A DNA stretch of 62,408 nt, filler included, from Basidioascus undulatus (Eukaryota), in NCBI GenBank assembly GCA_000826855.1. It is 5 parts of 5 records of this genome, joined end to end, with 100 filler letters (N's around TTAATTAATTAA, not from the genome) between each part and the next. Parts side by side here need not be neighbours in the genome. Positions count along the whole stretch, not along the records: positions 7,573 to 35,481 come from JTLS01000155.1; 4 more parts are not named here. One strand, written 5' to 3'. The notes beneath the pieces were generated by a model. The model did no database searches and had not been told where the DNA came from. It saw only the letters and a list, made by a program, of their open reading frames with translations. Of the stretch, positions 1 through 54,953 are shown one piece after another. Position numbers and translations under genes: made by a program. Position 1 is the stretch's first letter. Each line of letters starts with the position of its first letter.

Positions 1-1576
1 ACTCCGACCACCAGAGCAACTCGATCCTCATGCGCTCGCAGCTCGACTGCGAAGACGAGCGCCTCCCCCGCAAGACGTTCGACATCAAGACGCGCGCGTG
101 CGTCGCGGTCAGGCAGGACCGGCTGAACTACGAGGTGCGTCTGCCACCGCTCCCCACCTGCCCTTTCCGGAGCTGATGGCGGACTTGCTGCTGGTGTGTA
201 GGAGGGCGGCGGGTACATGATCAAGCAGAGCCGTGCGTCCTTCCTGCGTGAGTGTGAACAATGAAGTGGGGAAACTGATGTGGAATGGGGATGGGATGCA
301 GAGGGCCTCCTTGAGTCGTTTGAGCGCGAGTACTACGACATGATTCGCGGGGCGTTTTTGAAATACGGGTGCGTGGTAGAGGAAGAGAAGCTAGGGAGCG
401 AGCATAGTGTCTGACTCGACACGACGCGATGCGGTGCAGTCTCCAAGCGCGCATCGGGCACATGGACGGGATCTTTGTCGGTGCGTCTCTTCTCCCCACC
501 CATGCTCACTCAAGCGCAACAACATCCACTGACTGGGGGGAGGGGTTCATCCGCAGCCTATCATAACACGGCGCGGATCTTCGGGTTCCAATACGTCCCG
601 TTGGAAGAGATGGACGCGCGCGTGTACGGCACGTCCGAGATGGCCGAGCAGGCGTTCCGCCACAGCGTGGCGATCCTCGAGCGCGTCCTCGACGAGGCGT
701 CGGGGATGTTCCCCGGCGAGGTAGGCGCCCTCCCCTCTTCGCCCCTTCTCCTTTCCTATTCAACATTAAGCGAGATGGCTCGCTGATCTCTCTCGCCCGT
801 AGACCCTCCGCATGACCTTCGAGACGCGCACGAACCACTCGAACATGACCGTCTATGTCCAGCCGGACCGGACGTCGTCCGCGTCTTCATCGGAGGCAGA
901 GGCGGAGGCAGACGACGAAGAGGGCCCGATCCGGCAGATCGACGTGAGCGTTAAGAGCAGGCTCAACGGCGACCCCGTCTCCGGGCCGATCGACTTTGAG
1001 TCCCACCCCGACTGGCGCGAGGGCCCGCACGAGGACGCGGTGGGGCCGGTGCTTTGTGCGTTTCTTCTTCGTCATAACTCTTCCTCAGCGATAAAGAGAG
1101 CATCGAAGTACTTACGCGTGGTGTGCACAGGGGAACTCGAGTACACGCTGAATACCTCCGCACCCGAAGAGGCGTTCCTCGTCCGGCGGAACCTGCACGG
1201 CACGCGCAAACGGCAGACCGCGCTGGGGAGCATCGCGCTCCCTGACGGACTGACGCCTACGGATATCGCGCGCCGGCGCGCAGCGATGCGGTCCTGGCGC
1301 CCGTCGTCAACGTCGCCCGATTCCGACCCTGAGGCAGTCCAGGAGGGCGCAGCGGAGGAGGAAGACGCCGAGGTGGGCCTGGGCGTCCGGTACATGCCCC
1401 CTAGTCGGCATGTGCAGGAACTCCGCAGGCTGAGTAGGGAGGGCGAGCGGATGCGGAAGATGTTGGAGGAGAAGTGGGGCGGGAGGAAGGTCGTGTGGAG
1501 GGAGGTGGAGGAGGGGGAGGGGGAGGGTGTTGAAGAGGATAGGGTCAGCGAGGAGGACATGCGCGCAGAGAGGTAG
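1..1576 (+). CDS. PET127: Mitochondrial RNA-processing protein Pet127, 3' part, spliced (5' end outside the window)
   Basis: Exons give LMRSQLDCEDERLPRKTFDIKTRACVAVRQD, EREYYDMIRGAFLKY, LQARIGHMDGIFV and AYHNTARIFGFQYVPLEEMD, which match the conserved Pet127 core. GT-AG introns lie between them; stop at 1574-1576. Confidence 0.9.
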
Positions 1577-2157
1577 AGAGCCCGAGGGGGCACACACATC
1601 CTCACTGCCTTTGGATTACTTGCGAGACGGCGGCTGCGCCTTTTTGCTTGTGCGGAAGACTGCCGTCGATCAGATCGTTTCTCTTTGGGTGCATCCGGTG
1701 CTCAAGCCCTGAACACTGCGATTGATGCAAGGCGGCAACACTTAACGCTACGCCAGTAGACTATGTGGCAATCGCACGCATTTCGATGTTGGAGCGGGGC
1801 ATTCGGGGGGCCGTTTCATCCTTCAAGTCTCCCGTTCTCCATGGGTTTGCGATTCAGGACGACAAGCTCACAGGGAGCCGTCATTAGTCACCGCGTCGGG
1901 ACGCAGGCACGCCGTCCTCGATCACATTTTGAGCGTGCGCAAGATCAAACAAGGATCCTGACAGGACGCAGGCACGCTGACAAGCCTTCATTTTTCAGAC
2001 TTCAACCGTAGGCTTTAAGTACAATTGTTGACAGTGGTATGAAGACAGTCGTTCGGGAATGGGTACATGTTCCGCCTTACATCCACCGCAAATGTCACAA
2101 CGTTCCATCGCTTCCTTCATGTCCTTGAGCATCGCGATTCCTACTGAGGGCCGTCCA

Positions 2158-7180: not shown

Positions 7181-7472
7181 ATGATGAAACTCTGGTATTC
7201 ACGGGAATATCAACGGATTGAAGAGAGGACAGCCTACAGTCGCATCCTCAATCGATTCACCGCCGGCAGCAGCGAAACACCTGCACGTTGGGAGACTCGC
7301 ACATCTCCGTGCGGCGGTGCAACTCGACGTGATTCCAAGAAAAGTAAGATCGTCACGATAGTGCAAATGGGAAAAGAATACAACAGACCCTGCGAACTGC
7401 CCCCAAAAGCCGTCCCGACCCACCTCAGCCCCAAACGTCCCCCCCCCCCCTGCCCTCCCGCCCGACAGCGTA

Positions 7473-7572
7473 NNNNNNNNNNNNNNNNNNNNNNNNNNNN
7501 NNNNNNNNNNNNNNNNTTAATTAATTAANNNNNNNNNNNNNNNNNNNNNNNNNNNNNNNNNNNNNNNNNNNN
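7473..7572. other. Artificial contig linker (N44-TTAATTAATTAA-N44)
   Basis: 100-nt N block with a central motif giving stops in all six frames; the same block occurs four times. Confidence 0.97.
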
Positions 7573-7710
7573 TGATTCTGAATGTGTTTTGGCATCTGTT
7601 TGATGCACTGGCACAGGCATCTGAGTCGGCTCCAGGTAGGGCGGTCAAAAGGTGAGGCAAAGTCGGAAGTGCTCAACCATATCCGCGTGGGTCCCCGCCT
7701 GTCTTATTCT

Positions 7711-9960: not shown

Positions 9961-11052
9961 ATGTCTTCGAGCCGCATCATTCCGCTGCCTGCCGAGGTGA
10001 CTGCCCTCATATTCGCGTTCGCCAGCGAGGGGAACGAGGAGAAGGCGGCCAAGACGCGGGCGTCCCTTCCCTTATCTGTAATCGCCCTGGGGGAGAGTGT
10101 GTCCGCACGCTCGAGATAGCTCTACCGAGCGACGTACCGTGGTCCGCACACATGTTCGAATCGTCTCTCCTTCCCACGGTCTTTGCGCTCCTGCCGAAGC
10201 TCGTCTCCTGCTCGATGGCCGGTCCCGACCACCTCGAGTGGGCGGTCCTCTGTGGATCGCCCTGCCTCCGCACCTTGTCTTCTGCTGGCACCGCTACCCT
10301 AAAGAAGCTGTTGCTCAGGCTGGGCTTTCCCGGAACCGAGGCTGAACCGGGTCTTTCGTGCTTCGATCGATTCACCAATCTTCGAAGCCTCACCCTCACC
10401 ACCGTCAGGCCTGTGCACTACGCCGTGGACCCCTCTTTTCTACGCATGCCTCGCCTAGAGAAGCTCGCTCTGAGCTCTCAATTTGTCGGTCCTGAAGCAG
10501 CCCACTGGCTAGGCACACTCGAGCTTTCTCGCCTCGGCAAACTGGCCCTCTCATTCCAGGGCCCTACCCGTTCCTTTGCCGCTCCGCCGATTCCTGAAGC
10601 GCCACGCTGGCACCTCGGCAACCTCGGAATATCTGCCGAGAACTCCGAAAGCGAAACGGCAGTCGTGCGGCGCTACACATCTGCCCGTCGGTGACACGCA
10701 TTTCGCTGCGGATCGACGTTACAGCGGCGAGCTCGCCCAAGCCTTGCCCCATTCCCTGCAGTGGCTCACCCTCGAAGGGCGCTTTCTTTCGTCCAGCCGC
10801 GCGCGAGCTTTAGCGGGCCTTCTCATTCGACAACTCTGCATGTTGCCCCCGCTCAAGCGTAGAGCCGTTCGACTGTGTTCTTCGGCACCGCGAGGCAAAG
10901 TCTCCTGGACTTCGGACAACGAGGCCGATTTCGCCCTCATCTGTTGGGCTGTTCAACGGAGCATCAGGTTGAAAGAGTATGGCATTGATCTCTGTGATAG
11001 CTCTTGGCTACGCCTGGGCGTGTCGGTCGGAAGGGTCTGTGAAGATAGCTAG
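9961..11052 (+). pseudogene. F-box/LRR (RNI-like) gene with several frameshifts
   Basis: ATG at 9961 gives the F-box-like MSSSRIIPLPAEVTALIFAF. After a frameshift near 10070 come LRR-like segments (FTNLRSLTL, MPRLEKLAL, LSRLGKLAL), and after further shifts near 10580-10690, LPHSLQWLTL. Confidence 0.6.
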
Positions 11053-11472
11053 GAAGAGGCGGACGAGGACGAGGATGTTCAATGATTTGTTGATGAGGGT
11101 GCCTGCGAAGACGATCAGTAGTTTAGGCTTGCTGCGGTGCCTTGTGCAAGACGGGATCTGCTCGGTCTGCATGTATCTTGCCCCTTATAACGGATTAGGG
11201 CACCAGTCTTTGCGCAAGGGAAGTAAAGCCCAGGAGACGGGATACGTTGAGCTCCAACGCCCTTGGTTCCTTTCCTCTCGTAGCTACCTACAATACAACA
11301 GATTGCCAGAAAAGAAGTGTAACAAGCGTTTCACATCACTTCCGGAGGGAACAGCTCAGACAAAATAAGAACGATTCAGCGGTTGATCTGGTATTGACAC
11401 CAGTCCCTGCGATGCCACTTCATTTGAAGCACAAGGATGCTTGTTCATGTTCATGTTTGCTTGTGCCTTCCC

Positions 11473-13057
11473 TCATCCGAAAATGTCCAACACCACACCC
11501 GCAGCGATGCTCGCGCCGCCACGGCGGAGGAGCACGCGGCCCATGTCCTTGTTGATGCTGAACGGCTCGAGCGGGACCGCGACGGAGCGCTGCGGCCCGC
11601 CGGACGTCGAGAGCGAGCCGGAGCGCAGCGTGATCTCGACCCGCGCGCTGGCGCTCTTGGTGAGTACTCTGAGGCGGTCAGAAGTGGGAAAGTCAAAGAA
11701 ATGAAGGGGACTGAGGTAGAGGGGAAAAGGGAGGACGAACCGAGGCTTGTTCTTGATCACAGCGCCCGTGGAGCGGTCCAGCGTCGCGATGAGCGACGTG
11801 ATCGTGGCGGGTAGGTTCGTCGAGTGCTCGTAGAGCTCGACCTATCACAAAGGACACCAACAGAAACTTTCAGCATTCGTGGTCTAGAGATACGGACCGA
11901 ACAGGAAGATGGGCGTACAGCTGTGCCAGGCGTGATGGGCAACTCGACGTCGAACAGGATGATCTGCGCGTTGAAGCGCGTGACGAGCGGGACGGGCTGC
12001 GAGGGCGGGCAGAGGACGGAGCCCACGCTGCGCGGAGACGGCGGTGGAACAAATCGTGAGCGAGGCGTGCTGTCGGTGAGAGTGGCTGATACGACGTACG
12101 CAAGGTGGATGGGGTCGATGCCCGCAAGATATAGCGTAACGTTCGAGCCCGCAACGGCCCACGGCACGCTCTCGTCCTCCTCCTCAATCACTGTGCGCCC
12201 ATCCATCATCTTCAGCATTTGCGGACCTTCGAAGCTCTCTGCCGCCCGAGGAAATACTCACACCGCACAACAGCAGTCTCGTCGCCCGGCAAAACGCGCA
12301 CGCGCTCGCCCACTTGCACGATGCCGCTCGCCAAGCGGCCGCTGACGCCGACGCCACTCGCGAGCGCCGTCTGGCCCTTGAAGACGTTGTGGAGGGGCAG
12401 GCGGAGGGGGGCGTCGTACGGTCGTTTGGGGTCCTCGAAGCGATCTTCATAGAAAATGATCAGAAATTGGCGAACTGTCAAGGATCACGACGGCGACGCG
12501 ACATGACCCACCCAGCACCTCGACGAGCGTCGGGCCGTCGTACCACGCCTCGAGCACGGGACTTGACCGCGCGATCAGATTCTCGCCCGTGAACGCCGCA
12601 ACGGGCACGTAGGTGGTGCTGTCCTTGCTGAACCCACACTGGAGCAAGAACGGCTTGAGCTCGTCCACGATCTGCTCGAACCTCGCCTGGCTGTATCCCA
12701 CCTGTGAACACCCCACCCCATCCCACAATCGCTTTAAGTCGTACCGCTTTATTTGAAAGAGTGGAAGAAGCGAAAGTCAAACGCACCGCGTCAAGCTTGT
12801 TAACCAGCACCGCCAACTCCCTCACGCCAAGTGCGCGCACAAGGAGCGCGTGCTCGCGCGTCTGGCCGCGCTCCGAGAAGCCGCTCTCGAACTCGCCCTT
12901 GCGGGCGTCGACGACGAGGAGCGCCGCGTCCGCCTGGGACGCGCCGCTGATCATGTTGTGCACGAGGTGGGCGTGGCCGGGCGTGTCCACCAAGGCGAAG
13001 CGCTTGCCCGTCGTGGGAAGACGGAAGTTGGTCAGGTTGAAGTCGAGGGTGACACCC
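11473..13057 (-). CDS. HBS1: HBS1-like translational GTPase, 3' exons only (switch I/G2 through domains II-III); N-terminus and G1 P-loop absent
   Basis: [116 protein letters not shown]. No GHVDAGKS-encoding exon was found upstream. Confidence 0.88.
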
Positions 13058-13128
13058 CTGGGATGATGCGGTTATGAGGTTAGTGTGGGGGGGAGAGGGG
13101 GGATGGGAAATGGAAGAATGAGACTCAC

Positions 13129-13287
13129 CGACTGGAGGAACTGCTCGCGGATGACCTCGGCCTTCCACCAGACGGCGCGCGGGACGGGGACGCCAACGCG
13201 GACGTCCTTGACCTGGACGGTGAGCGCGCGCGTCTCGGCGGCGTCGCTGCCGCCGAGGATGTTCTTTGCGGATTCGAGGAGGGACAT
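13129..13287 (-). CDS. FAS1: Isolated first exon resembling the N-terminus of fungal fatty acid synthase beta subunit (FAS_N region)
   Basis: MSLLESAKNILGGSDAAETRALTVQVKDVRVGVPVPRAVWWKAEVIREQFLQS aligns by eye with yeast Fas1 STRPLTLSHGSLEHVLLVPTASFFIASQLQEQF. It has strongly coding codon usage, a GTGAGT donor at 13128 and a long C/T-rich leader upstream. Confidence 0.7.
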
Positions 13288-15288
13288 CGTGCGTGTACTG
13301 GGGTGTGCGTTGGGGTATGAGTGTGGGTGGGTTGGGTGGTCGAGGAGTGTGGGTTGTGAGGATGAGCGTAAAGGTGGAGTGGGCTGTCTCTAGTCGGAGG
13401 AGGGTCGTGAGGATGAGAAGGAGTACAAGGCCGTTGCGATCAAGCCGAGGTTGCCAAGTTGCCAAAAGAGAACCAAAAGAGTAGAGAAACGGGATGGGGA
13501 TGCGCGGTGGTGCGTGTGTGCTGCTGCTCTGCTGCTGCCGATAACAAGGCGCGTTTGGGGCAGGAAGAGGATGAGTAGCAGGCGGGGATGGGGGTGGTGG
13601 GAGGATAAGGGTGTTGCCAGAGCAGGCCAGCGAGCAAGGCAAGATTGGAAGCAGGCAGGCTGCGATGGGATGGGGAGACGACTCGCCGACTTTCCCAGGC
13701 TGTTGTCCCGAGCACGGGCGCTGCGCTGCGTCCCCAACGCCCAGCGAAGCGACCCCACCGCGCCTGTCCCCTCGACCTGACCGCCCGCTTTCCGAATTGG
13801 CCCGCCCCCGCCCTTTCGTCCTCCTCCGTCCCCATCCCAGCCTCTTTTTTTCTCAGTCCTTCTCGCACACTCGCAATCTTTATTTTTGCTATCGTCATTC
13901 CCGCTCGCTTGTGCATACTCACTGCGATGACTGACTCAATACGGACCCCCGCCTGCCGCTTGCCCCAACTTGCCCCAACTTGCCCCATTCAACGCTCGCA
14001 ATCCGGTCGCCGTGCGGTGCTGCATTTCCCCGAGAGCCTGCTTGCCGTTATCACCACCAGTCAGACCGTTATGCATGTACCAACCAATGCAAGCTGCACG
14101 ACTTCAATTAGACGCAGTTGCAGCGCCGAAATCTTTCTGCAGCAAAGTCTTCCCGAATCGGAACGTCCCGGCATGGCAACTGACGTCTGACACTTGCGCA
14201 ATCTTGCGCAACGAGCTCATTTCCCAGCGCTCGCGACGTGCCTTCCCTTTTCCCCTTGTTTTTCACCCAAAGGTGGCCTTTAACCTCTTCGATCCTTTCC
14301 GGCGTCTTACTTCTGGTAACCATATCAATAAGAGCTCACCAACGCGATCCGAAATGTGCATCACTGCTGTGCAACCACTTGCAGTCTTCAGCCGCCCAGT
14401 GCCGTCCAGTGAGCGGCGCCGCTAGATTATTGGTCCGAAATTGCTGCAGCGCCGTTCGTTGCAGCAGCAGCCACACGCCAGCAGCAGCGCCGACGGTTGG
14501 CTGCGTCTTTTGTTGTCTGATCCGGATACAGACCTCATAGATTGAGGTGCTCTATCTGGTCAGACTGCGTTAGGTTGCTTTGATGTGGGCATGGACGCGA
14601 ACCGTCGAGGGCGTGGGTGGGTGAAACTCAGACGGGCTGGAAGGATGTGGTGGATGAGTACCTAGCGGGGTAGTGAGCGCACGGGCCACCGTGCCAATGG
14701 CTGTCCGACTGTCCGACCCTCGCCAGCATCTTCGTATGAATCGCGTTCGGACCGGTAATATCGATCGTAAATCCGAAAGTCCGCACCATGTCTTCTCCGT
14801 CCTTCGCTCAGAGGCGACGTCGCTCATGACTAAGAGCACTACTACCAGCCTCTATAGCGAGCTTGCGCCTGCGGACGGCATCAAGGACAAGCTAGGCGCG
14901 TTCCAGGTCGTCCTTTTGTGCGTTGCCCTGCTTCTCTTCCTTTGCTCGTGTCCTCCTTACTTCGGATTCTACAGGTTTGTCCGAGTAGTCGGGCCCGCAA
15001 GACCGTCCGGACTGTATGAATCAAACACACCTTACGTCTACTAGGAGAGGCTTCTTTAGGGGACGACGAGCGCGGGGAGGTGCTGTTGAAAGAAAGGGGT
15101 CTGTAGTGTGGCAGCATGCAGTGATGTTGACCTCCAGGCGCTCGGGGTGCGGGCAATTCAGTCTGTTAATGCCATCTCGTCAGATCCTTCTGTTTGTTGA
15201 ACTTCGAAGGAACGACGGACGCTTGCTCGAGAGCCATGCAGACATCCAGAAGATAGCCGACGTTGGCGACCGTTATATAGAATTTGGA

Positions 15289-16014
15289 TTAGTCTCCTAG
15301 GTATCTGCGGACCGAGAGCGATACATAAAGCGTTACCGCTTGCACTGGCGGTGTGGTCGCAAAGGTCGCCCCGATGACGGCGTGGTCGTGCAACGGCGAG
15401 AAGGAACGCCCGCGCCCTTCCCGGTGCTCTCCTGCAGCGCGACGCGCTCGGATCGCTTTCTCCATCGTGACCACGAAGGAAGAGAGCCTTTGGGAACGAG
15501 ATGGAAAGTGTTCTTTCAAAAGGCCTCGCGATAGCAGCTCAGGGCATTGAAGCTCCACGGCCTGATCGACAACACCAGCAGCAGACAGCGGCGGCGCATA
15601 GCCTGTCCATCCGATCGTCCCCCAGTCTGCAATCTTTCGGTCTAGGTGGAAGATTAACCACATCTGTTCAAATAAGAAGCTTCGGAAAAGCGGAGCTGAA
15701 CGGACCCACGCTTTTCCGAAGCTGAACGGACCCACGCATGGCTTTGAGAGCTTGCACCGCGCTCTGCCCCCGCATTTCGGCGACGCCAGCCGCGCGGCCG
15801 CTGTGCACACAGCCGATAGTACCCCGTCCTTACTGTGGCCAAATGCGAGTGGCGCTCCGAGTCCGCTTCGATTCAGGATACGAAGAAGGGAACTTTCATC
15901 GCATATCTCTCTGAGACGACTGCACGTCCGCGAGAGGGCTGTTGAGGGCAGTAGCGAGTAGATCTCGTCTCGGACCCGGATGAGGATCTCGTTTGGGAGC
16001 GTGAGGAGAGACAT
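15289..16014 (-). CDS. F-box-like protein of a lineage-specific family (paralog of 50841-52000); possibly truncated by a premature TAA
   Basis: F-box-like MSLLTLPNEILIRVRDEIYSLLPSTALSRTCSRLREI, then GLGAP..VCTAAARLASPKCGGRARC and ATFATTPPVQ. Coding-like sequence continues in frame after the TAA at ~15290. Confidence 0.6.
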   Translation of the reverse strand: MSLLTLPNEILIRVRDEIYSLLPSTALSRTCSRLREICDESSLLRILNRSGLGAPLAFGHSKDGVLSAVCTAAARLASPKCGGRARCKLSKPCVGPFSFGKAWVRSAPLFRSFLFEQMWLIFHLDRKIADWGTIGWTGYAPPLSAAGVVDQAVELQCPELLSRGLLKEHFPSRSQRLSSFVVTMEKAIRARRAAGEHREGRGRSFSPLHDHAVIGATFATTPPVQAVTLYVSLSVRRYLGD

Positions 16015-16441: not shown

Positions 16442-17859
16442 CTACGCCGCCGTCGAAGGTCCAGCCTGCGCCGGGGCCTCACCCCCGCTCCCAAACTTCC
16501 ACCACCGCCTCTTCTGCTTCGGGGCCGCCGACTCGCCCACAATCCCGCTGACGACCTCGTCCGCCTTCCTCTCGTCCCTATGGACGATCTCGCCCTCCCT
16601 TTGCGCACGACTAGAACTTGCTTGCGCCTGCGCCTGCATGGGCGGCGCGCTCCGCTGCTCCTGCAGGAGCCTCGACCGGATCTTCGTCCCCTCGCCCGGC
16701 TTCATGCCCTTCCCCACCCCGAGCTTCTTCACGCGCTTCAGCGCCTTCTTCTCCGCGTCTGTCGAGCCCAGGAGCGCGGGAGGGATGGCGGGAGGGTTCG
16801 GGTTCTTCTTGCGCTCACGTCGGGAGGGGCCCGCCTGGAGGACGGAGGCGGCGTGGCCCTTCGCGTCGATCTCGGCTGCGAGCGCGGGGTGCTCGGCCGG
16901 CAGTGCGATGAACACCTCGCCCCGGCGTCGGACTGCCCAGTCCAGCTGCGCAGATCAGAAGAGGCCGGGAAGAGAGATGCAGAGCAGTGGAAGACGGACG
17001 GTATTCTTCTAGCAAATGCGAGTTGCGCGAGTTCGCCTTCCACGCCGCGAGGATGACGTCTCCCACGAGCGGGACGAACCCTACTCCCGCGGAGATGGCG
17101 TTGTTTGTCCACCTGTCCCAGTTACCTCCATCAGCACTCCTCACGCGTGCCAAGTCCGCTGATACGTACATGCGCGTCCGGAGAGTTTCAGGGATATCCG
17201 CCTTCGAGCACTGCCGGAGGACGAGAAAGTAGTTGAGGGACGCGTCGGCGCTGCGTCGATGAGCCAGTCCAGCGTCAGCCGACACATCGACCATCCCGCC
17301 TGAAGGAAGTAGAGACTCACACGTCACCCACTACAGGGATCAGCCCGATGAAGAATGTCCAACTGCGCTTCAACATGTCAGGAGCCCTCCGCTGTTCCGC
17401 CCACCCAGCCCGCGACGCACCCGAAGCGGAACCCGCAGACGGTGAACCCCTTGTCGAGGTAGTGGGCGCGCTTCATGACCTTCTCTGCTCCCAGTGACCC
17501 CTTCAGCTGCTATAATCCGCACCAGTATGGAAGGTACGTACTGAGAATGCGCTCGTCCCGCTTGGACAGCCCGGGAGGCACGTCGCGCTTCCGGCGCCGG
17601 ACGCGACCTTGCGCGTCTGTGTACTCCTCGTCTGCACACCTCAGCCCCTCTCAGCACACCGTAGCACCACAGTTCCGAATAGCCGAGTTGTACCCACAGT
17701 ATGGGTCCAGAGGGGCCATTCCTGCCACACGTTGAGACAGCGCGTTGCCGGCCATGTCGGCCGCGACCTGCAGCCCGATAGCGACGCCGCTTGTAAGCTC
17801 TCTCCTGCGAAAGCCACGGGTCTTCGGGCGACACGCACTTTCTTTATAATGGCGCTCAT
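16442..17859 (-). CDS. DUF4112-domain membrane protein, multi-exon
   Basis: Spliced exons DPY..PPGLSKRDERIL/KVMKRAHYLDKGFTVCGFRFG/WTFFIGLIPVVGD/ADASLNYFLV..ADIP..M/NNAISAGVGFVPLVGDVILAAWKANSRNSHLLEEY are the DUF4112 signature. Confidence 0.85.
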
Positions 17860-20034: not shown

Positions 20035-23000
20035 ATGGCGGTTCCGATGCCCGCCGGGCCTGAAGGGGCGGAAGGGGCAGGGGCAGAAGGGGCAGCAGGG
20101 GCAGCGTCTTCCTCGTCCGTCTCTTCGCTCTTCGCCCGCATATAATCGAGATCATGCTCATCTTGCTGCGTTTTACCGGTCTGGATGAAACAGATATGAT
20201 TACCAAGATGCACCGATCGAGGGGGAGTTCACCGTAAATCGGTCTCTTGCTCATATCCCCCTCTCAGGAATCGGAAAGAGCACCGCTCACACAACCCCTG
20301 CACTTTCATCTCCTCGTACAATGCGATATACCACAAGATACGCGCAGTAATTCTCGGCCTGCTTATAGGCGTTCTCCTCTGCCTGACGAACCTCGTCCGT
20401 CCTCCCTCACCGCGGCTCTCCTCCTGCCCCTACTACCCTGCTGATTCACGCACTTCAGTTCTTCGGATTGCAAAGCGGGTGGATCAGGTGCGGCGGCGCC
20501 TGAAAAATACCTAAACCGTGCAGCACGGTGCTGATGGTGGAACGGGGACTCGGAACAGCATGATGTCCCTCCAGGCTGCGCTTATCGGCTTCGGGCTGGG
20601 GAAGCTCCAAGGGCGGGGGCTGAGCGTGAGGGAGAACGTCGGTGGGTCACTTTCCCCATGCTTCAGCTCTTTGTCCCGACCCTGAACCCCCCTCGCAGTC
20701 GTCCAAACCACTGCAGTAGGCGTCGGGACGCTGCCCTTGGCCGCCGGTGCGTCTTCTTCTTCCTCCTTCCTTCCCGGTCCCTTGTCTCATCATGCTGGAC
20801 AACTGCACCCAGGGCTGGTCGGGATTGTCCCCGCGCTCTCGCAGCTGTCCCCCGACTCAGACGGGGCAGAGCCAATCGTCCTCTCCGCTTGGCATCTCAT
20901 CGCATGGTGCCTCGCCACTGCATTCTTCGGGGTCTTCTTCGCTGTGCCGCTAAGGAAACAAGTCGTACATAACTCTGCACACCCCGTTATCTTAATTCTC
21001 CTCTTTCGCGTCTGACACAGCGTCGCTGCCCGTCGGATAGATCATCAAAGAGAAGCTCGTCTTCCCCTCCGGGACGGCGACCGCGCAGCTCATCTCCGTC
21101 CTGCACCATGCGCCACTGCGCGACGAATCTGCCTCTTCCGTATCTGCGTCCGGTTCTGCACCGCGCCGCCGGAACCGCAGTGGATACGAGGCGCTCCCGT
21201 CCTCTGTGGACGTGGAGGAGGTCGACGACGGCGCGTCGGTAGACGAAGCGGAGGAGGCGGCGGAGGAGCGCAAGGGCGTGCAGGACGCGGTGGGGCGCAG
21301 CGGTTGGTGGAGGCTTGCGGGGAGCTTTGGGGCCAGTGCGGGGCTGACGGTGCGTGTCTGGCTGTGCCCAGCTGCGGTGGGAGGTTGAACGCTCATGAGC
21401 TTGTGCGGCGGTTGGATTGGGGGACGGCAGATCGCGGGCTTCTTCTTCCCTGTCCTTGGGGCGATTCCGTTGTTCAACGTGTTTGGGAACTCGCTGGCTA
21501 GCAAGTGGTTGTGGTGGTGCGTTAGGACCTCTGCTCTGGGCGTAAAAGAACCTTCCCGACTGACTGCGTTGCGCAATGCTGCCTGAAGGTTCTCACCCTC
21601 GCTTTCGTACATCGTACGCCCCGCTTCTTGGACTGGAGCAGATCAATCCCTCATACCTCCTTGTCGCACCTGCAGGGCCAAGGCGTCATCATGGGCCTCC
21701 CCACAACGCTGTCAATGAACGTCGTGCGTCTTCCTTTCCTCCACCCCTCTCGTCTTCCACATCCCGCACACGCGCCTCTTCATCCAGGGCATGCTCGTCG
21801 GTTGGGCCGTCCTCTCCCCGCTCTCCTACCATCGGGGCTGGGCGCCGGGCCCCCCCGCCTCCTCCTCCGACGGCGCGCGCGGGTGGATCCTGTGGACCGC
21901 CCTAGCGATCATGATTGCCGAGTCGCTCGTCGGGCTCCTGCCCATCGCAGCGGAGACCGTCCAGCGCTACGCGTCCGGCATTCCGTCATCCAAGCAGGCG
22001 GATGCGGAGGAGGACCATGACGACGAGACGCCCGACCGCCTCGTCCCCGCGTGGTGGGTCTGGGTCGGCCTCTGCGCGTGTACAGTGGGCGGGACGGGCC
22101 TGATCTGGGCGGTGTTTGGCGCGGAGGGGATCCGCCCGTGGGCGACCGTCGTGGGCATCGCGATGGCGAGCGTGTTTAGCTTGCTTGGGTGCGCTGGTTA
22201 CCTCACTCACTGCGGTCGACTGCGGGGTGGCTCATGTGTGGGGCGTGGGGGGGGCGGGGGACAGCGTGAGAGCACTCGGCGAGACGGACCTCAACCCCGT
22301 TAGCGGCATCGGCAAGATCTCGCAGCTCGTCTTCAGCGTGCTCCAGCCGGGCAACGTCGTCGCGAACTTGCTGGCGGGCGGGATCGCAGAGGCGGGCGCA
22401 CAGCAGTGCGTCTTTCTTTTCCCCGCTCTTTCTTACTTTCACTCTTTCTTACTTTCCTTCTTGTTACCGACGCTGAATGTGGGCGGGTACCGACGCAGGG
22501 CGGGCGACCTGATGCAGGATCTGAAGGTGCGCCTTCGTTTGCATCTCGCGCAAGAAAGCTCGGAAATGGAATACTGATGAGCTTGCACGTAGACCGGGCA
22601 CCTTCTCCGCGCCAGCCCGCGAAGCCAATTTTACGGGCAGCTCATCGGGTCGTTCGCTTCCGTGTTTGTTTCGACTGCGGCGTACAAGGTACCTTTTGGC
22701 TTTCTCTCGCACCCGTTTTGTCCGTTGCACTCACACATGGTCTGCTAGATCTACACCGCGACGTACACCATTCCCGGTCCGACCTTCCCTGCTCCTCAAG
22801 CGGCGATCTGGTGCGTCTCTTCTCGCGCCCCCTGCTGCTCCCCATCTCTGCTAACGCCGCCGATACAGGCTCAATCTCGCCCGGCTCGTCAACTCCGGCT
22901 CGCTCCCTCCGCGCGCGAAAGAGTTCATGACCGCCTTTGGGATCGTATTCGGGGGATTGTCGGCGCTCCGCGTGTGGCTGGATGGGAGGGGCCAGCAGAG

Positions 23001-28281: not shown

Positions 28282-28932
28282 ATGCTCCGCGCCTCCCTCG
28301 CCCGCCTCTCCTCCCAAGCAGCAAACGCAGCGCGCCCCTCGTACCGCGTGCCCACCGCTTCGCTCATGCCCGCCGGTCCAGTCGAGGAGGCCATCGTCGC
28401 CAAGGTCCGGCTCCTGTGCCTGAAGGGAAGGGGAGGGAGGGGATGGTAGACTGACAGTGGCGGGATGTGCGACGACAGCTTGAGGCGCTTCTGAAACCGA
28501 CCTTTCTGGAAGTGAGGAACGACTCGAGCAAGCATGCGGGGCATGCGGCGATGCGTGCGCAGGGTGGGGGAAGCGGGGAGACTCGTGCGTCCAGACTTTC
28601 TCAGCCCTCTTCCCTCTCCTCGCAGGGATGTTCTGATCTACTTGTGGTGGGATGGGGAAACAGACTTCGCGGTGACTGCCGTGTCCGAAGTGTTCGAGGG
28701 GCAGGTGCGTCTTGTCCCTCATGCTCCCATCCATCCCCATCCCCATCCCCATCCCCCTCCCCACTCACTCCTCCACCTCTCAATTGAGCAGAGGCACATC
28801 CAGCGCCACAAGCTGGTCAACACCGCGCTGCGGGAGGAGCTCGAGCGCCCAGGCGGCGTGCATGCGCTCAGCCTGCGCTTGAAGACGCCTAGGGAGGCGG
28901 AGGCGGAGGCTGCGCAGGCGGGGGGGCAGTGA
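28282..28932 (+). CDS. Mitochondrial BolA-family protein (Bol1-like), four exons
   Basis: Presequence MLRASLARLSS, then GPVEEAIVAK/LEALLKPTFLEVRNDSSKHAGHAAM..GET/HFAVTAVSEVFEG/RHIQRHKLVNTALREEL..GVHALSLRLKTP. Confidence 0.92.
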
Positions 28933-31833: not shown

Positions 31834-33066
31834 ATGTCCCGCACGACCTACTCGCTCTCCGACCTCGTCCCGCTTTCGTCCGGGCACTCCATCCCCCGCC
31901 TCGGCTTCGGCGTGTACAAGTCTCCCGCGTCGCAGACGATCGCGTCCGTGAACGAGGCGCTCAAGGTCGGGTACCGGTGCGTCTTTCCTCCTCCCTCCCG
32001 GACCTCCCTCTCCCTGTCCTGCCACTCATTTACTAACCTCCCAACCAATCCCAACCCTCCTCCATACCCTTCACGTCCACCCCAGTCACATAGACTCGGC
32101 GCAGTACTACGAGAACGAGCGGGAAGTGGGGCAAGCTGTGCAGGACGCCTCCCTCCCGCGCGAGTCGCTCTTCGTCACGACGAAGATCATGTCCCCCGGC
32201 GAGTCCGGGCCGGCGTCGACGCTCGCCAAGGCGCGCGAGAGCTTCGACCGCTTCGGGCTCGACTACCTTGACCTCTTCTTGATCCACTCGCCATCGTCCG
32301 GCCCGGAGGGGAGGAAGGAGATGTGGGCGGCGCTGGAGAGGCTGTGGGAGGAGGGGAAGGTCAGGACGCTCGGCGTGTCGAACTTGTGCGTCGCCGCTCC
32401 TCTCCTTCGTGCACCTTGTTCACATTCAGCATGCTGACTTTGTGAGGCGGTTCACAGTGGGGTGAGGCATATCGAGGAGCTCAAGAAGGTCGCGAAGGCC
32501 CCGATGGCCGTAAACCAGATTGAGGTGCGCTTTTCCATCACTGTGCTACCCCTAACCGGGCTTCCCTCTGACACAGGGCATATGCAGCTCCACCCCTGGT
32601 GTCAGCAGCGCGAGATCGTAGAGTATTGCAAGAAAGAGGGGATCGTGATTGAGGTGCGGACTTCACTCTCCCCCCCACCATCCCATCCCATCCCGCTTTT
32701 ACACCCACGCGGCACGCACGCGCAGGCCTACTGCCCTCTCGTCCGCGCCCGAAAAGCCGAGGACCCCGTCCTGCAGCGTATCTCCAAGGAGTGCGTCCCC
32801 TCTCCCTTATTTTCTCTTCTCCGCGAAGCAAGCAACCAAGCCCTCCCCCGCCCCACAGGGTGAACCGCCCCTGGTCGCAAGTCCTCCTCCGCTGGTCGCT
32901 CCAGCACGGCTTCGTCCCGCTGCCCAAGTCGGACAGCCCCGAGCGCATTGCGGCCAACGCGGACATCTACGACTTTGCGCTGTCGGAGGCGCAGATGGCG
33001 GACCTGGACAAGCTGGACGAGGGGAAGAAGGGCGCGATCGCACCGAATCCAGTGGACTGCGAGTAG
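31834..33066 (+). CDS. Aldo-keto reductase (AKR5/2,5-DKG reductase-like), spliced
   Basis: IPRLGFGVYKS..ALKVGYR/HIDSAQYYENE..LFVTTKI..GLDYLDLFLIHSP..GKVRTLGVSN..NQIE/LHPW..AYCPL..QVLLRWSLQHGFVPLPKS. The catalytic D/Y/K/H residues are visible. Confidence 0.95.
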
Positions 33067-35481: not shown

Positions 35482-35581
35482 NNNNNNNNNNNNNNNNNNN
35501 NNNNNNNNNNNNNNNNNNNNNNNNNTTAATTAATTAANNNNNNNNNNNNNNNNNNNNNNNNNNNNNNNNNNNNNNNNNNNN
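35482..35581. other. Artificial contig linker
   Basis: N-TTAATTAATTAA-N, 100 nt. Confidence 0.97.
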
Positions 35582-37642
35582 CTTGCGCGCTTCGATGTCT
35601 TGAAGGAGTACAACGAGGGGCCGTTCAGCATGCTGGGGAGGACTGAGAAGAAAGTCGGGCCGGCCCCGCCTGTGATTTAAAGTGCATTCAGCCTCCTGCT
35701 TGCTTTCGTGCAATAAGCGGAAGTGGACTACGCACCTGCCAGGAGCAACACGCGATCGTACACGCCGAAAGAACCCTCCGGCCCACCGTAAGGCCCATCG
35801 AGCAGGACAGGAACACTCTTGTTGATCCCACGAGCCGCAAGACGAGCGAGGCTGTCGGTCAAACCAGCGTTCTGCCGGACGAGCACGACAATTTCGCGGT
35901 CCTCACCAGGACAGTCTTGGCACACGTTTGCGACCGTGAAAGGGTGCCTGGGGTGCGAGAAATTTCGGTTCAGCCTACCAATGTGGATACTTGAAACGAG
36001 AAAGCGAAAACCCACGACTCGAACGGGCGGCAATTAATGAAGTTCAGGAAGTAATGCTGGCCGGCGCGCCAGGTGAACGACGGCGGGCAGGTGATGGTGA
36101 CGCGGGTCATGCGGGAGGAAAGGGCTTCAAACTGAGCGCGGGGGATGCACCGGCCGTTGCGCACAGCGATGAGCCCTAAACGCGCAAATACAGACAGGCC
36201 GTACACCGCGATGGTCGCATAGAGGTAGTCCCTGTAGCCGACACGTTGTTAGTACAACAGCATAGGAAGCCATCACCGATCTTGTGCAAGAGGTTTCATG
36301 ACCCAAGCAGCTTGTTGCAGTGGATGAAGAAGAACGCAAAGAACAACGCGACAGAGATGAAGTGCAGGACTGAACGAGCGCCATCGGAACTCGGCATGTC
36401 AATGAGGAACCGTGAAACTGATACACAACTCACGCTTGAAGAGCTCGTAGTGACGATTCCTAAAGTGTGGCAGGACGGTCAGTCAGTCATACGCAAGAAG
36501 GCAAAATGGATATCAGCGCGGTAACCTACCTGATGAACGGCAGACTGCCCCAGCAGAGCCACGCAAGCACGATCAACGCCGCAGTACCCGACCAGTAGTA
36601 GCTGCAGCACACTCTCAATGTTTGGTCAAATAAAATGCAGGAAAAACACCTGGCCAACGTACACTTTGTTCTCCCACCCATATCGCAGCTGCGATAGGCC
36701 GGTACCGGGCTTGATTTCCCTGGACGTGGAAGAGGAGCATGAGCTGCGGCATGCCCCGGTTTGAAGGAACACTGACGCACTTTAGGCCGAGGACAATGAA
36801 GGGGAAAGTGTGAAGCATGGAGAGCGCGACTGCCGCAGGATCGTTCAGGTGGGAGTCGCTCGCTGCCCCAGCACGACAAGCGACTCACGGAAGAGGTGCG
36901 ACAGCCATTGGTGGTAGACTTGCAGTTTCTCATGCGAGAAGCCCGTGACAAAGGTGACCAAGTTCCACTTCGCCCCGAAAGCGCTGGACACCCGATCCGA
37001 TGAGTACGTCTGCGCAAGTGAGGATAGGGAGCGTGCCTGCGTACAGGATGAAGGGGAAGCAGCCGAGCGCGAAGAAACCGGTCCGCATGGCGAGCGGGGG
37101 AGATCCAACGTTCCAGCGGCTCCTGTAATAAGGGTACACACCTAGGCTCCAGACTAAAGCCGTGAAGAGCGTCGTTACTGAGCTATTCTGGTCCACAGGT
37201 CCTCACCACGCAAAAGGAGACGCACTGATGATGAAGAGCGTGAAGGCAAGCATGAGAAGGCCGAAGCCCAGCACAGGGGAGGTAAAATTCAAAAACCGCT
37301 GCTGCACCGAGCCCAAGTAACGGAGAAGAGCGACGGGCTTGCGGTAGACGGTCGAGTTCGCAGTGCGCTGGCCCCATCTGCAACCAGCAGGGACACCCAG
37401 TCAGCACCAGCCTACCTCCAAACCTTCAACTACACCGACGGTAAAAATACTTACTTTGCGGATTGGCGGACACGGTGGATAATGTTCGCGACGCCGAAGA
37501 GTCCGATGGTAGCGCAGAGGAAGTAGACCGGCGCCCGCGCGTACTTGGGCGTCTCCTCGTACGGATCTACCAAAGTTTCGGCAATCTCAGAAGGCGTCAT
37601 GCCATCGTGAGAGTGGGCGCGGGGCAGAAGAAGCGAGCTCAT
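35582..37642 (-). CDS. Ferric/cupric reductase transmembrane component (FRE family), 3' end cut by the contig break
   Basis: SPPLAMRTG..KWNLVTFVTGFSHEKLQVYHQW, MLHTFPF, YYWSG, HYELFK.LHF..FFIHC (heme His residues), WRAGQHYFL, HPFTVAN (FAD), LDGPYGG..YDRVLLLAG (NADPH). Confidence 0.92.
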
Positions 37643-43045: not shown

Positions 43046-43145
43046 NNNNNNNNNNNNNNNNNNNNNNNNNNNNNNNNNNNNNNNNNNNNTTAATTAATTA
43101 ANNNNNNNNNNNNNNNNNNNNNNNNNNNNNNNNNNNNNNNNNNNN
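43046..43145. other. Artificial contig linker
   Basis: N-TTAATTAATTAA-N, 100 nt. Confidence 0.97.
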
Positions 43146-43627: not shown

Positions 43628-44164
43628 AGTGTCCAGCACCTTGAAGTGGAAAGTGCACAGTAAAGTGGAAGGATTAAAGGAGTGGCGAGCAAGGAGGATG
43701 GATGGGGAAGGAAGACGTGCAAAGCACGCGATTTTACCGATTGCTTATGTGAACGTTATCGCCTTCGAGGCGACGGCCGTCAGGTACGGCGGGCGAGAGA
43801 AGGGTCGTTCAAGAGTCTACGTTCAGGAGCGGTTTCGCGAATGGCAAGAACGCCAACTTTCCGCCGCCGCCGAGTAGCGACTTCTCCTTGCACTTGATCG
43901 TCGTGAGCAGGAGCTCTATATCGCTTTCTCTAGTTGAACACTTGGAGCACGAGCACGTAGAATAATGTGAGTACACCGTTCCTCACCACGCAATGCTCGG
44001 ACGCTCTAATCGATCGAGTCGATCCGCCAAGCGTCTTCGTCCTCCTTGCCTTACTCGCTCTCTCTCCCCTTCGCGTCTCCACTTTCGCGTCTCCAAAACG
44101 GCGCTTGAGATCAGACTCTCGACCGGACGCACCTTTCTTACCCCTCGTTCCTCACCAGCCCGCC

Positions 44165-44910
44165 ATGCTCTTCTGCCCCAACTGCGCCACCTCGCTCGTC
44201 ATCTCCCGCGAGTCGAGCGGGTTCAACAAATGGGCATGCAACACCTGCCCGTACGAGTTTCCCATCTCCAAGCAGGTGCGTCCCCTCTTTCCCAAAACCC
44301 CCATTCCCCTCCCTCTCTCCTATCCTCCCTATCTCCTCCTACTCCTCCTTTGTGTCGTATTTGGGATGTGTGTACGCGGGTGCTGATGTGCTCGGTGGGA
44401 TGGGTGTGGTGTAGATGACGAGCCGCACCAAACTCAAGCGGAAAGAGGTAGACGACGTACTCGGCGGGGAGGAGCAGTGGAAGAATGTGGACCAAACGGA
44501 CGGTGGGTTCCCCCATCACTTTCCCCTATCCTCCACTCCTTCCCTCCGCCATCCTCCCGTCCTGCTGTCTTCATCGTTCCCGATGACTCGGCACTGGTTT
44601 AAATGCTTAACAAAAGGGAATGATGACAGCCGAATGCCCAAAATGCTCCAACGGTCGCGCGTTCTTCATGCAGCTCCAGATCCGCAGTGCCGACGAGCCA
44701 ATGACGACGTTCTACCGGTGCGTCTGGCCCTTGTCTCCCTCCAATTCCCTTCTTCCCTTCTCCGTTCATCGCCGAGAACCTCGTGTATGGAGGGGGGACG
44801 CGGGATCTGGTGTTGACCCACACCGCCGCTCGGACTCTACTGACGTCCGCCCTCCCACGTTAAACAGATGCACCAACGCGAAATGCGCGTTCCAGTGGAA
44901 AGAGAACTGA
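44165..44910 (+). CDS. RPC11: RNA polymerase III subunit C11 (TFIIS-like), four exons
   Basis: MLFCPNCATSL..ACNTCPYEFPI/..KRKEVDDVLGGEEQWKNVDQT/ECPKC..AFFMQLQIRSADEPMTTFYR/CTNAKCAFQWKEN. Confidence 0.97.
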
Positions 44911-52399: not shown

Positions 52400-54146
52400 C
52401 TACTCCCCCAGCCGCGCATACCGCCTCCACGCGGCTCTCTGCCCGCTCCCCCTGCCCGCGCCCATCCCGCGCTCACGCTCGAGCGCAAACAGCGCGTCCC
52501 GCATGTTGACCATGCGCTTCTCCTCCCCACCGTCGCGCACCTGCGCCGCGTGCGCCGCGGGTCCCAACGCAGGGGCGCCGCGCACCCACCCACCCCCAGC
52601 CGCGCCCGCCGCCGCGCCGGACCCGGACGTCGAGGGCGTGAGGACGGGAGAGTTGAGCGTCCCTGGCGGTTGCGGTGTGAACTTGGGTTTGGGGAGCCCG
52701 TTCGTCGTGCGCGGTGAGGAAGGTGTCGAGCCGCCCTTCGGCTTCCCTGCGCCCAGCGCCGCCGCCGCCGACCCGCCGCCCGTCATCCACGAGTACTTGG
52801 CGGACAGCCCTCCGGCCGAGCGGAGAGCCGTCTGGTCCGACAAGCGCTTCTGCACGTCCTCAGACATGTTCCGCGCGGACGTCGGCCCGTCCTTCCGCTT
52901 CTTGCCCTTCTTCTTCCCCGACTCGTCCTCCGCCCCGGCGTCCGCACCGTCCCCCATCCCGCCCCCACCGAGCGCCTCGCCCTCCTCGCGCATCTGCCGC
53001 TCGAGTGCCTCGCGCTCGACACGCTCCCGCCGCCGGCGCGTCTCCTCCTCGCGCTCTATTCGCTCGAGCGCGGCGAGCTGCTTGTCCACGTCTGAGGAGA
53101 TGACCTGCGTGTACATGGGCGTCGGCGTCGGCAGGTCCGGGTGCAGCGGCGGCGGGGCGGCGTGGGAGGAGGATTGGCGGTGCTGCGAGGCGGAGATCAT
53201 AGATTCGACGAGGGAGCGCAGACGCGCTTGGGCGGCGAGTGCAAGGTAGGCGAGACAGTCTTCATCCACTCGTTGTAGAAGATGTGGGGCGGCTAGGAAG
53301 AAGGCGTGCGATTTCAGCGGAATGTGGGGAAGGTACGCGTTAGGATGGCGAAGCACGCACCCGCTGCTCGGATCCGTTCTCGCAACACGACAGGATTCAA
53401 GAATTCCTGCACACGTGTTCGGCTCGGTCTAGACGGCGCGCCGTATCGCGGCTGGAGCATCTCATTCCCTCTCAAGATCGCCTCCTGCTCCGCCTGCAAC
53501 CCTCACCACCCACGACCCGGCCCCATGTTCAGACCACACACCCCTGCCAACCCAGATCCGAGAAGGGAACACACCTCAATATCCACCCCTGCCGAGCCCA
53601 CAGCGTCGATCAAGGACATGACGTCCGTCCGCCCCCCACCGCCGCCGCCTGATGAAGACTCTGCTGCTGCTCCCGAGCTTCCGCCTTGCGCAGTAGAGGA
53701 CCTTGGACGCCCAAATCCCGCCCGCGCGAGTCCGTGAGCCAAGGAACGCGTGACATGGGGTGGGAGGGCTCAAGTTCTCACCCCGCTGCGGCAGCGCCTG
53801 CTCCTGATGCGCCGGTAGCTGCATGTGCGACAGTTGATCGATGTGCGTCACGGATGTGATGAGAGTGGTTGATGTGTGATCGAGGAACGGTTCGAAATGG
53901 GCCACGCCCGCAGGGGGAAGGGATGGGGAAGGGGAAGTGGGGTCAGCGCGTCCGCACGCGACACGCCGGCCAGGATCAAGCAGCAGCCTTACACGCAGCA
54001 GGCGCGTTGGCGCGGGGCAGTGCAAACGCGGCACCTGCGAGGCCCGTTCTGGGCATGCCGCCCCCCGTCGCAGGGGTCGAATTGAACGCGTGCGTGGATG
54101 AAGACGCGTCCACGTCCAATCGGGGCTTCTTGAACGAGGCCTGCAT
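52400..54146 (-). CDS. TAF4: TFIID subunit 4, multi-exon
   Basis: DVMSLIDAVGSAGVDIE/AEQEA, FLNPVVLRERI, histone fold VDEDCLAYLALAAQARLRSLVESMISASQHR, SDVDKQLAALE, ARNMSEDVQKRLSDQTA..KYSWM, and VNMRDALFALERE. Confidence 0.92.
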
Positions 54147-54853: not shown

Positions 54854-54953
54854 NNNNNNNNNNNNNNNNNNNNNNNNNNNNNNNNNNNNNNNNNNNNTTA
54901 ATTAATTAANNNNNNNNNNNNNNNNNNNNNNNNNNNNNNNNNNNNNNNNNNNN
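54854..54953. other. Artificial contig linker
   Basis: N-TTAATTAATTAA-N, 100 nt. Confidence 0.97.

Follow-up and report, generated by a model that had tools for sequence, protein, structure and literature searches.

The fusion of FAS1 and HBS1 sequence carried by contig JTLS01000155.1 of Basidioascus undulatus (assembly GCA_000826855.1) is very probably a chimeric contig, an artefact of assembly or library, and not a new gene. The contig measures 27.9 kilobases (kb) and fills positions 7573-35481 of the window, the whole 62,408-nucleotide (nt) stretch analysed here, with the gene on the minus strand. It is highly likely that positions 7573 to ~13107 hold the 3' seven exons of HBS1 and what lies downstream of them, and that ~13087 to 35481 hold the FAS1 promoter, leader and exon 1 together with what lies upstream. 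The two loci are most likely unlinked loci of a basidiomycete-like fungus. In the organism HBS1 most likely has normal upstream exons, splicing joins exon 1 of FAS1 to the second exon of that gene, and no FAS1-HBS1 gene exists. The grounds for an artefact can be summarised as (i) both loci and both messages are intact in a second, independently sequenced sample of the species; (ii) the older sequencing run has a coverage hole at the junction; (iii) five of the eight inner contig ends of the window break in similar G/C-run sequence; (iv) the two ends of the hybrid intron differ in phase, and splicing across it leads to a stop after 138 amino acids (aa).

Four public runs (X1-X4) were compared, as contigs, with positions 10500-15500 of the window. 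X1 is an older run (2014) and the probable source of the window, X2 provides DNA contigs from another study (2025), and X3, referred to here as RNA-like, derives from the sample of X2 and was given 'DNA?' as a guess at its kind. X4 is a soil metagenome. A reading made earlier from the sequence alone (the sequence-only reading) had judged an assembly chimera 'at least as likely' as a real gene, and the runs have strengthened that judgement: DNA contigs diverge at the junction, RNA-like contigs of both genes are ordinary and a contig bridging the join occurs in none of the four runs.

The two halves continue differently in the independent sample, in both its DNA and its RNA-like contigs. X2 record 3 (11,141 nt) follows the window from 10500 to 13107 with 0 other letters and then runs for ~2 kb unlike the window, and X2 record 4 (96,112 nt) fits 13087-15500 and is unlike the window below 13087. 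The overlap of these two loci is confined to 13087-13107, a 21-nt tract that reads GGGGGGGAGAGGGGGGATGGG on the plus strand, is G-quadruplex-like and occurs once in the window. Since the contigs diverge either side of this tract, the two halves are separate loci in that sample. The 71-nt intron at 13058-13128 (GTGAGT..CAG, 73% C+T) is accordingly divided as follows.

13108..13128, minus strand: 5' portion of the genuine FAS1 intron 1, with its phase-0 GTGAGT donor, from the 96-kb X2 contig and from X3 record 6, which exits at 13128
13087..13107, no strand assigned: tract common to both loci and crossover site, from X2 records 3 and 4
13058..13086, minus strand: 3' portion of the genuine HBS1 intron, with a phase-2 CAG acceptor and a branch-point-like CTAAC, from X2 record 3 and skipped by X3 record 5

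In this hybrid, then, the beginning of FAS1 intron 1 is joined to the end of an HBS1 intron, with the 21-nt tract as their overlap. This composition had been proposed from the sequence alone, on the ground that the two ends are phase-incompatible, and both the proposal and its premise hold: the X2 contigs diverge at 13107 and 13087, and the donor is phase 0 where the acceptor wants phase 2. Canonical splicing from GTGAGT to the HBS1 exon shifts the frame. A cryptic GTCGGT donor at 13132 does, as had been pointed out, restore it, and the translated product reads QFLQ|GVTLD.

The HBS1 part comprises seven exons and six GT..AG introns and forms an open frame of 379 aa that begins with G GGT GTC at 13057 and is closed by the stop codon at 11473-11475.

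12787..13057, minus strand: HBS1 exon with G2 (GVT), G3 (DTPGH) and G4 (NKLD); GTP_EFTU, Hbs1l 5lzw, named HBS1 relatives, X3 piece 12784-13058
12512..12701, minus strand: HBS1 exon; X3 joints 12698>12784 and 12444>12512, GT..AG ends, open frame
12262..12444, minus strand: HBS1 exon, start of domain II; X3 joints, weak GTP_EFTU_D2, open frame
12100..12190, minus strand: HBS1 exon; X3 joints 12190>12262 and 12027>12100, open frame
11919..12027, minus strand: HBS1 exon; X3 joints with the cut moved by 2 for GT..AG, open frame
11741..11841, minus strand: HBS1 exon; X3 joints, open frame
11473..11668, minus strand: last coding HBS1 exon with the stop, domain III; GTP-eEF1A_C, X3 piece 11446-11668

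The claim that the HBS1 exons run intact from GVTLD to the stop is therefore upheld. Translation of 12787-13057 contains G2 (GVTLD), G3 (DTPGH) and G4 (NKLD), and in Pfam the GVTLD-side G domain on this exon matches GTP_EFTU (E 2.9e-21), GTP-eEF1A_C is found at E 2.7e-11 and GTP_EFTU_D2 weakly at E 0.013. Searched against the PDB, this one exon has Hbs1l (5lzw, E 3.5e-27) as its best match, with archaeal and eukaryotic EF1A at 5e-26; in a large database it finds fungal proteins at 62-73% identity, some with HBS1_N (PF08938), and many of the matches bear the name HBS1. By blastp the 379 aa can be aligned over their full length with the C-terminal ~380 aa of full-length orthologs, at 61% with an 867-aa protein of Wallemia ichthyophaga, 58% with Rhodotorula and 52% with Mixia. 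The half shares G2-G4 and domains II and III with Hbs1/HBS1L, the eEF1A-like GTPase that partners Dom34/Pelota in ribosome rescue, and is collinear with it to the C-terminus.

What the window lacks is the N-terminal part. Since the GTP_EFTU match begins only at profile position 53, the P-loop (G1, GHVDAGKS-type) is missing from the window, as are HBS1_N and the long N-terminal linker. Orthologs carry 404-486 residues ahead of GVT (HBS1_N, linker and P-loop); HBS1_N is present in orthologs P0011, P0026 and P0118, and a tblastn search with three full-length orthologs gave no match in the window to the residues ahead of RGVT. In contrast to the Hbs1/HBS1L family this half has no N-terminal residues, and that is a property of the contig, not of the gene, for the RNA-like contig extends upstream. 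X3 contigs omit all six HBS1 introns and hold exonic stretches only. X3 record 5 (1451 nt, depth 22.3) carries all seven HBS1 exons plus 282 nt upstream of 13058; on the gene strand its nearest 30 upstream letters translate, by hand, to MDALSEERAR, followed by GVTLD. The EERERGVT of orthologs P0011, P0026 and P0118 is a family motif matching EERAR|GVT. Beyond 13107, X2 has 19 further intron bases starting GTGCGT and then the letters of the upstream exon of X3; this gives the real HBS1 intron a length of 69 nt and phase 2, the phase that the sequence-only reading had called for, and DNA and RNA-like data are concordant. The real HBS1 gene probably carries a P-loop.

On the other side of the junction stand the leader and first exon of FAS1.

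13288..13690, minus strand: FAS1 5' leader, from the start of X3 record 6 at 13690 and from composition
13129..13287, minus strand: coding part of FAS1 exon 1, assigned to the FAS beta N-terminus, from translation, FAS_N and P0002

The sequence-only reading had described a 53-codon exon with a C/T-rich leader in the place of the N-domain and P-loop exons, and the description is accurate: the leader has 403 nt, 66.5% C+T and zero upstream ATG, and the 53-aa peptide opens with ATG. Its suggestion that the exon resembles the FAS beta N-terminus agrees with a profile scan, in which residues 19-52 align with positions 2-35 of the 125 of FAS_N (PF17828) with an E of 3.8e-4 and a score of 21.1 bits, slightly short of the gathering score of 23.1. 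Against 1.84 billion representative proteins the exon has three matches at E <= 0.001. One is credible, the 85-aa P0002, which is 54% identical over exon residues 1-53 (E 2e-7), ends its match in the same FLQS and lies above the FAS_N threshold at 36.1 bits. The other two are long repeat proteins aligned over only ~20-27 residues and were set aside. No homologous longer protein was found among proteins of <=2000 aa, a limit below many fungal FAS lengths. A metagenome scan matched a single locus, L001 (a contig of 2115 nt), antisense to a bacterial transposase-like open reading frame (ORF; 610-1560 and 1479-1799, minus strand); it was rejected as a chance match. Because of the FAS_N match, and because P0002 at 54% identity itself passes FAS_N, we assign the 53-codon exon with good confidence, on sequence similarity, to the N-terminus of a FAS beta chain.

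The RNA-like data extend this assignment. X3 record 6 (5474 nt, depth 274) runs from 13690 through leader and exon and leaves the window at 13128; past that point it carries 4911 nt from elsewhere, starting FLQS|GPTVEDAAPV. Its exit at 13128 indicates that FAS1 transcripts are spliced from the phase-0 GTGAGT donor to the second exon of FAS1 itself. This half shares with fungal Fas1 a PF17828 match just short of the gathering score, the start and FLQS end in common with P0002 and a long, deep transcript contig, but the window holds only the first 53 residues and the rest of the gene is elsewhere. No acyltransferase, enoyl reductase, dehydratase or malonyl/palmitoyl transferase domain is found downstream of the exon inside the window, and none of the 268 ORFs of >=100 aa in the window matches a FAS domain at E 1e-5. 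Three 30-mers taken from the loose ends each gave 0 matches in the window at <=3 mismatches. With orthologs matching only from RGVT onward, these results place the missing halves of both genes outside the window. The HBS1 half is most likely an ordinary HBS1 and the 53-codon piece most likely an ordinary FAS1 first exon.

One could instead take the 53-codon exon for a lineage-specific alternative first exon of HBS1, in a correctly assembled locus. SKI7/HBS1 isoforms reportedly do arise through alternative splicing inside one gene (PMC3597508, PMC6143672), and the FAS_N score of the exon itself is under the gathering score. We nevertheless regard this explanation as extremely improbable: P0002, the sole credible relative, passes FAS_N; the RNA-like contig with the exon, 12 times as deep as that of HBS1 (274 vs 22.3), runs for 4911 nt into sequence that is neither HBS1 nor part of the window; the HBS1 contig goes upstream into the EERAR exon; and the intron phases mismatch.

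Upstream of FAS1, a short tandem repeat on the minus strand at 13955-13995 (~three copies of the units GGGGCAAGTT) lies ~270-300 nt before the start of the FAS1 transcript contig. This repeat may serve the promoter or be nothing more than low-complexity sequence.

X1, the probable source data, behaves differently at the junction. Two of its contigs end at 13119 and 13103 with a 17-nt overlap, and neither bridges. From the X1 contigs the 31-mers that span 13090-13132 are missing altogether, although this is FAS1 exon 1 and intron sequence under every hypothesis, and this reveals a coverage hole exactly at the junction.

Several points weigh against an artefact or blunt the case for one. The HBS1-side contig of X1 reaches 13119 with 0 other letters and so includes 12 bases of FAS1 intron (13108-13119, as defined by X2), which means that about nine chimeric 31-mers exist in an independent re-assembly of the X1 run. 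The join is therefore not purely an invention of the assembler: the DNA sample of X1 contained chimeric molecules or a real junction. A single base error in reads of the FAS1 locus was considered as the source and rejected, as it explains one such 31-mer and not a run of nine. All runs were available as contigs and not as raw reads, and contigs show the presence, not the absence, of a form. X3 is termed RNA-like solely because its contigs are intron-less. X2 and X3 are one sample of one study, hence one independent line, and may represent a different isolate. Finally, the FAS identity of the exon by itself falls narrowly under the Pfam cut-off (21.1 vs 23.1 bits).

The first of these points also speaks for a junction physically present in the culture behind the window. 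Here a break in the G-quadruplex-like intron tract would have been repaired through the 21-nt microhomology, by translocation or break-induced copy, leaving the FAS1 promoter and exon 1 before HBS1 exons devoid of N-domain and P-loop, beside an intact FAS1. The chimeric 31-mers, the frame-restoring GTCGGT donor and the G-quadruplex-like character of 13087-13107 all suit such an event, and use of the donor at 13132 could yield an in-frame, P-loop-less Hbs1 fragment of 431 aa (52 + 379). We consider a physical junction unlikely. X1 contigs never bridge, and end within 17 nt of each other; with a physical junction plus intact copies they would be expected, from the way k-mer graphs break, to stop at 13107 and 13087 and not at 13119 and 13103. 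X2 and X3 belong to the same species (the 2608 nt compared on the HBS1 side contain 0 other letters) and have both loci intact and normal messages. The joints 13128>13057 and 13132>13057 are in no contig of the four runs, from which a rare form could escape, and the strong GTGAGT donor gives a frameshift and a stop after 138 aa. Were the junction the sole product of a reciprocal break, an HBS1 phase-2 donor would stand ahead of the phase-0 FAS1 acceptor and FAS1 would be destroyed. FAS is essential in fungi, and a true reciprocal break would be lethal in a haploid.

The further step, in which a microhomology rearrangement beside intact genes supplies an Hbs1 fragment that is driven by the FAS1 promoter, lacks both N-domain and P-loop and is in frame only by way of the weak GTCGGT donor, possibly a Dom34 decoy, is more doubtful still. 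A GTPase-dead, Ski7-like Hbs1 made from a lipid-synthesis promoter had been suggested by the sequence-only reading and finds no support, the splice joint from either 13132 or 13128 to 13057 being unseen.

For a chimeric contig, the sequence of events may be sketched as follows. The 21-nt, G-quadruplex-like tract would be present by chance in an intron of both genes and lies inside the X1 coverage hole. The plus strand of the true HBS1 intron appears still richer in G, and polymerases would stall there; incomplete products might then re-anneal to the FAS1 intron via the shared 21 nt, and a few template-switched fragments alone might have crossed the coverage hole. The contig ends would have been joined by these few template-switched molecules or by a short-overlap decision of the assembler. 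That X1 contigs hold chimeric 31-mers in spite of a tract of 21 nt suggests that chimeric molecules in the library, beyond assembler error, played a part.

Chimeric contigs form at short low-complexity repeats in draft assemblies. The present case resembles them in two respects: the loci meet in a short common tract at which contigs otherwise stop, and the join is backed by neither of the independent assemblies of the species; it differs in that the shared tract is just 21 nt, yet chimeric 31-mers are found in the independent X1 re-assembly. The analogy to Ski7 drawn by the earlier reading invoked an Hbs1 relative with a GTPase fold and changed function that is encoded by the same gene in many fungi. 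The Ski7 isoforms reportedly differ N-terminally by splicing within a gene, whereas here the N-terminus comes from an unrelated locus and a transcript with the join is unseen. The analogy does not apply.

Annotators of this assembly would predict a frameshifted or chimeric FAS1-HBS1 gene and have both FAS1 and HBS1 truncated. The contig at 7573-35481 needs a flag to keep annotators from deriving a truncated FAS1, a truncated HBS1 or a fusion gene from it. Intron ends out of phase, together with a crossover in a short G/C-run tract typical of the contig ends of the assembly, make up a signature of the false join. If true, the join would be a rare natural promoter swap making a GTPase-dead ribosome-rescue factor; the evidence opposes this.

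The window as a whole consists of five contigs, with N runs at 7473-7572, 35482-35581, 43046-43145 and 54854-54953, each spacer being composed of 44 N, TTAATTAATTAA and 44 N; contigs that adjoin here are not necessarily neighbours in the genome. The remark that the junction tract resembles the places where contigs end proved apt, as G- or C-run-rich low-complexity sequence stands at the following inner ends (C12 at 7439-7450 is an example), and the source data evidently lost coverage in such tracts.

7403-7472: run-rich inner contig end
42976-43045: run-rich inner contig end
43146-43215: run-rich inner contig end
54784-54853: run-rich inner contig end
54954-55023: run-rich inner contig end

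Elsewhere the window has ordinary fungal housekeeping content, identified with Pfam (window positions).

415-783: Pet127
16818-17330: DUF4112
20686-22574: OPT oligopeptide transporter, several exons
28516-28929: BolA
31952-33063: aldo/keto reductase
35731-36033: FAD_binding_8 fragment, ferric-reductase type
43961-44383: RPB9-type zinc ribbon
52403-53428: TAF4

An ORF on the minus strand at 15292-16014 starts MSLLTLPNEIL; it looks F-box-like by eye and has no Pfam match at 1e-5. An RNA-like X3 contig of 241 nt (depth 9) maps to 14856-15096, between the FAS1 promoter region and this ORF.

X4, the soil metagenome, contributed short pieces only, of 90-99% likeness and none near 13058-13128; two apparent joints in it (10810>14895 and 12214>11781) were disregarded, having sides of <30 letters. 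Its short contigs at 12450-12674, 13174-13324 and 13421-13571 are 97-99% like the window (2-3 differences in 151-225 nt, depth 2.5-3), and this likeness suggests that soil harbours a very close relative of the organism.

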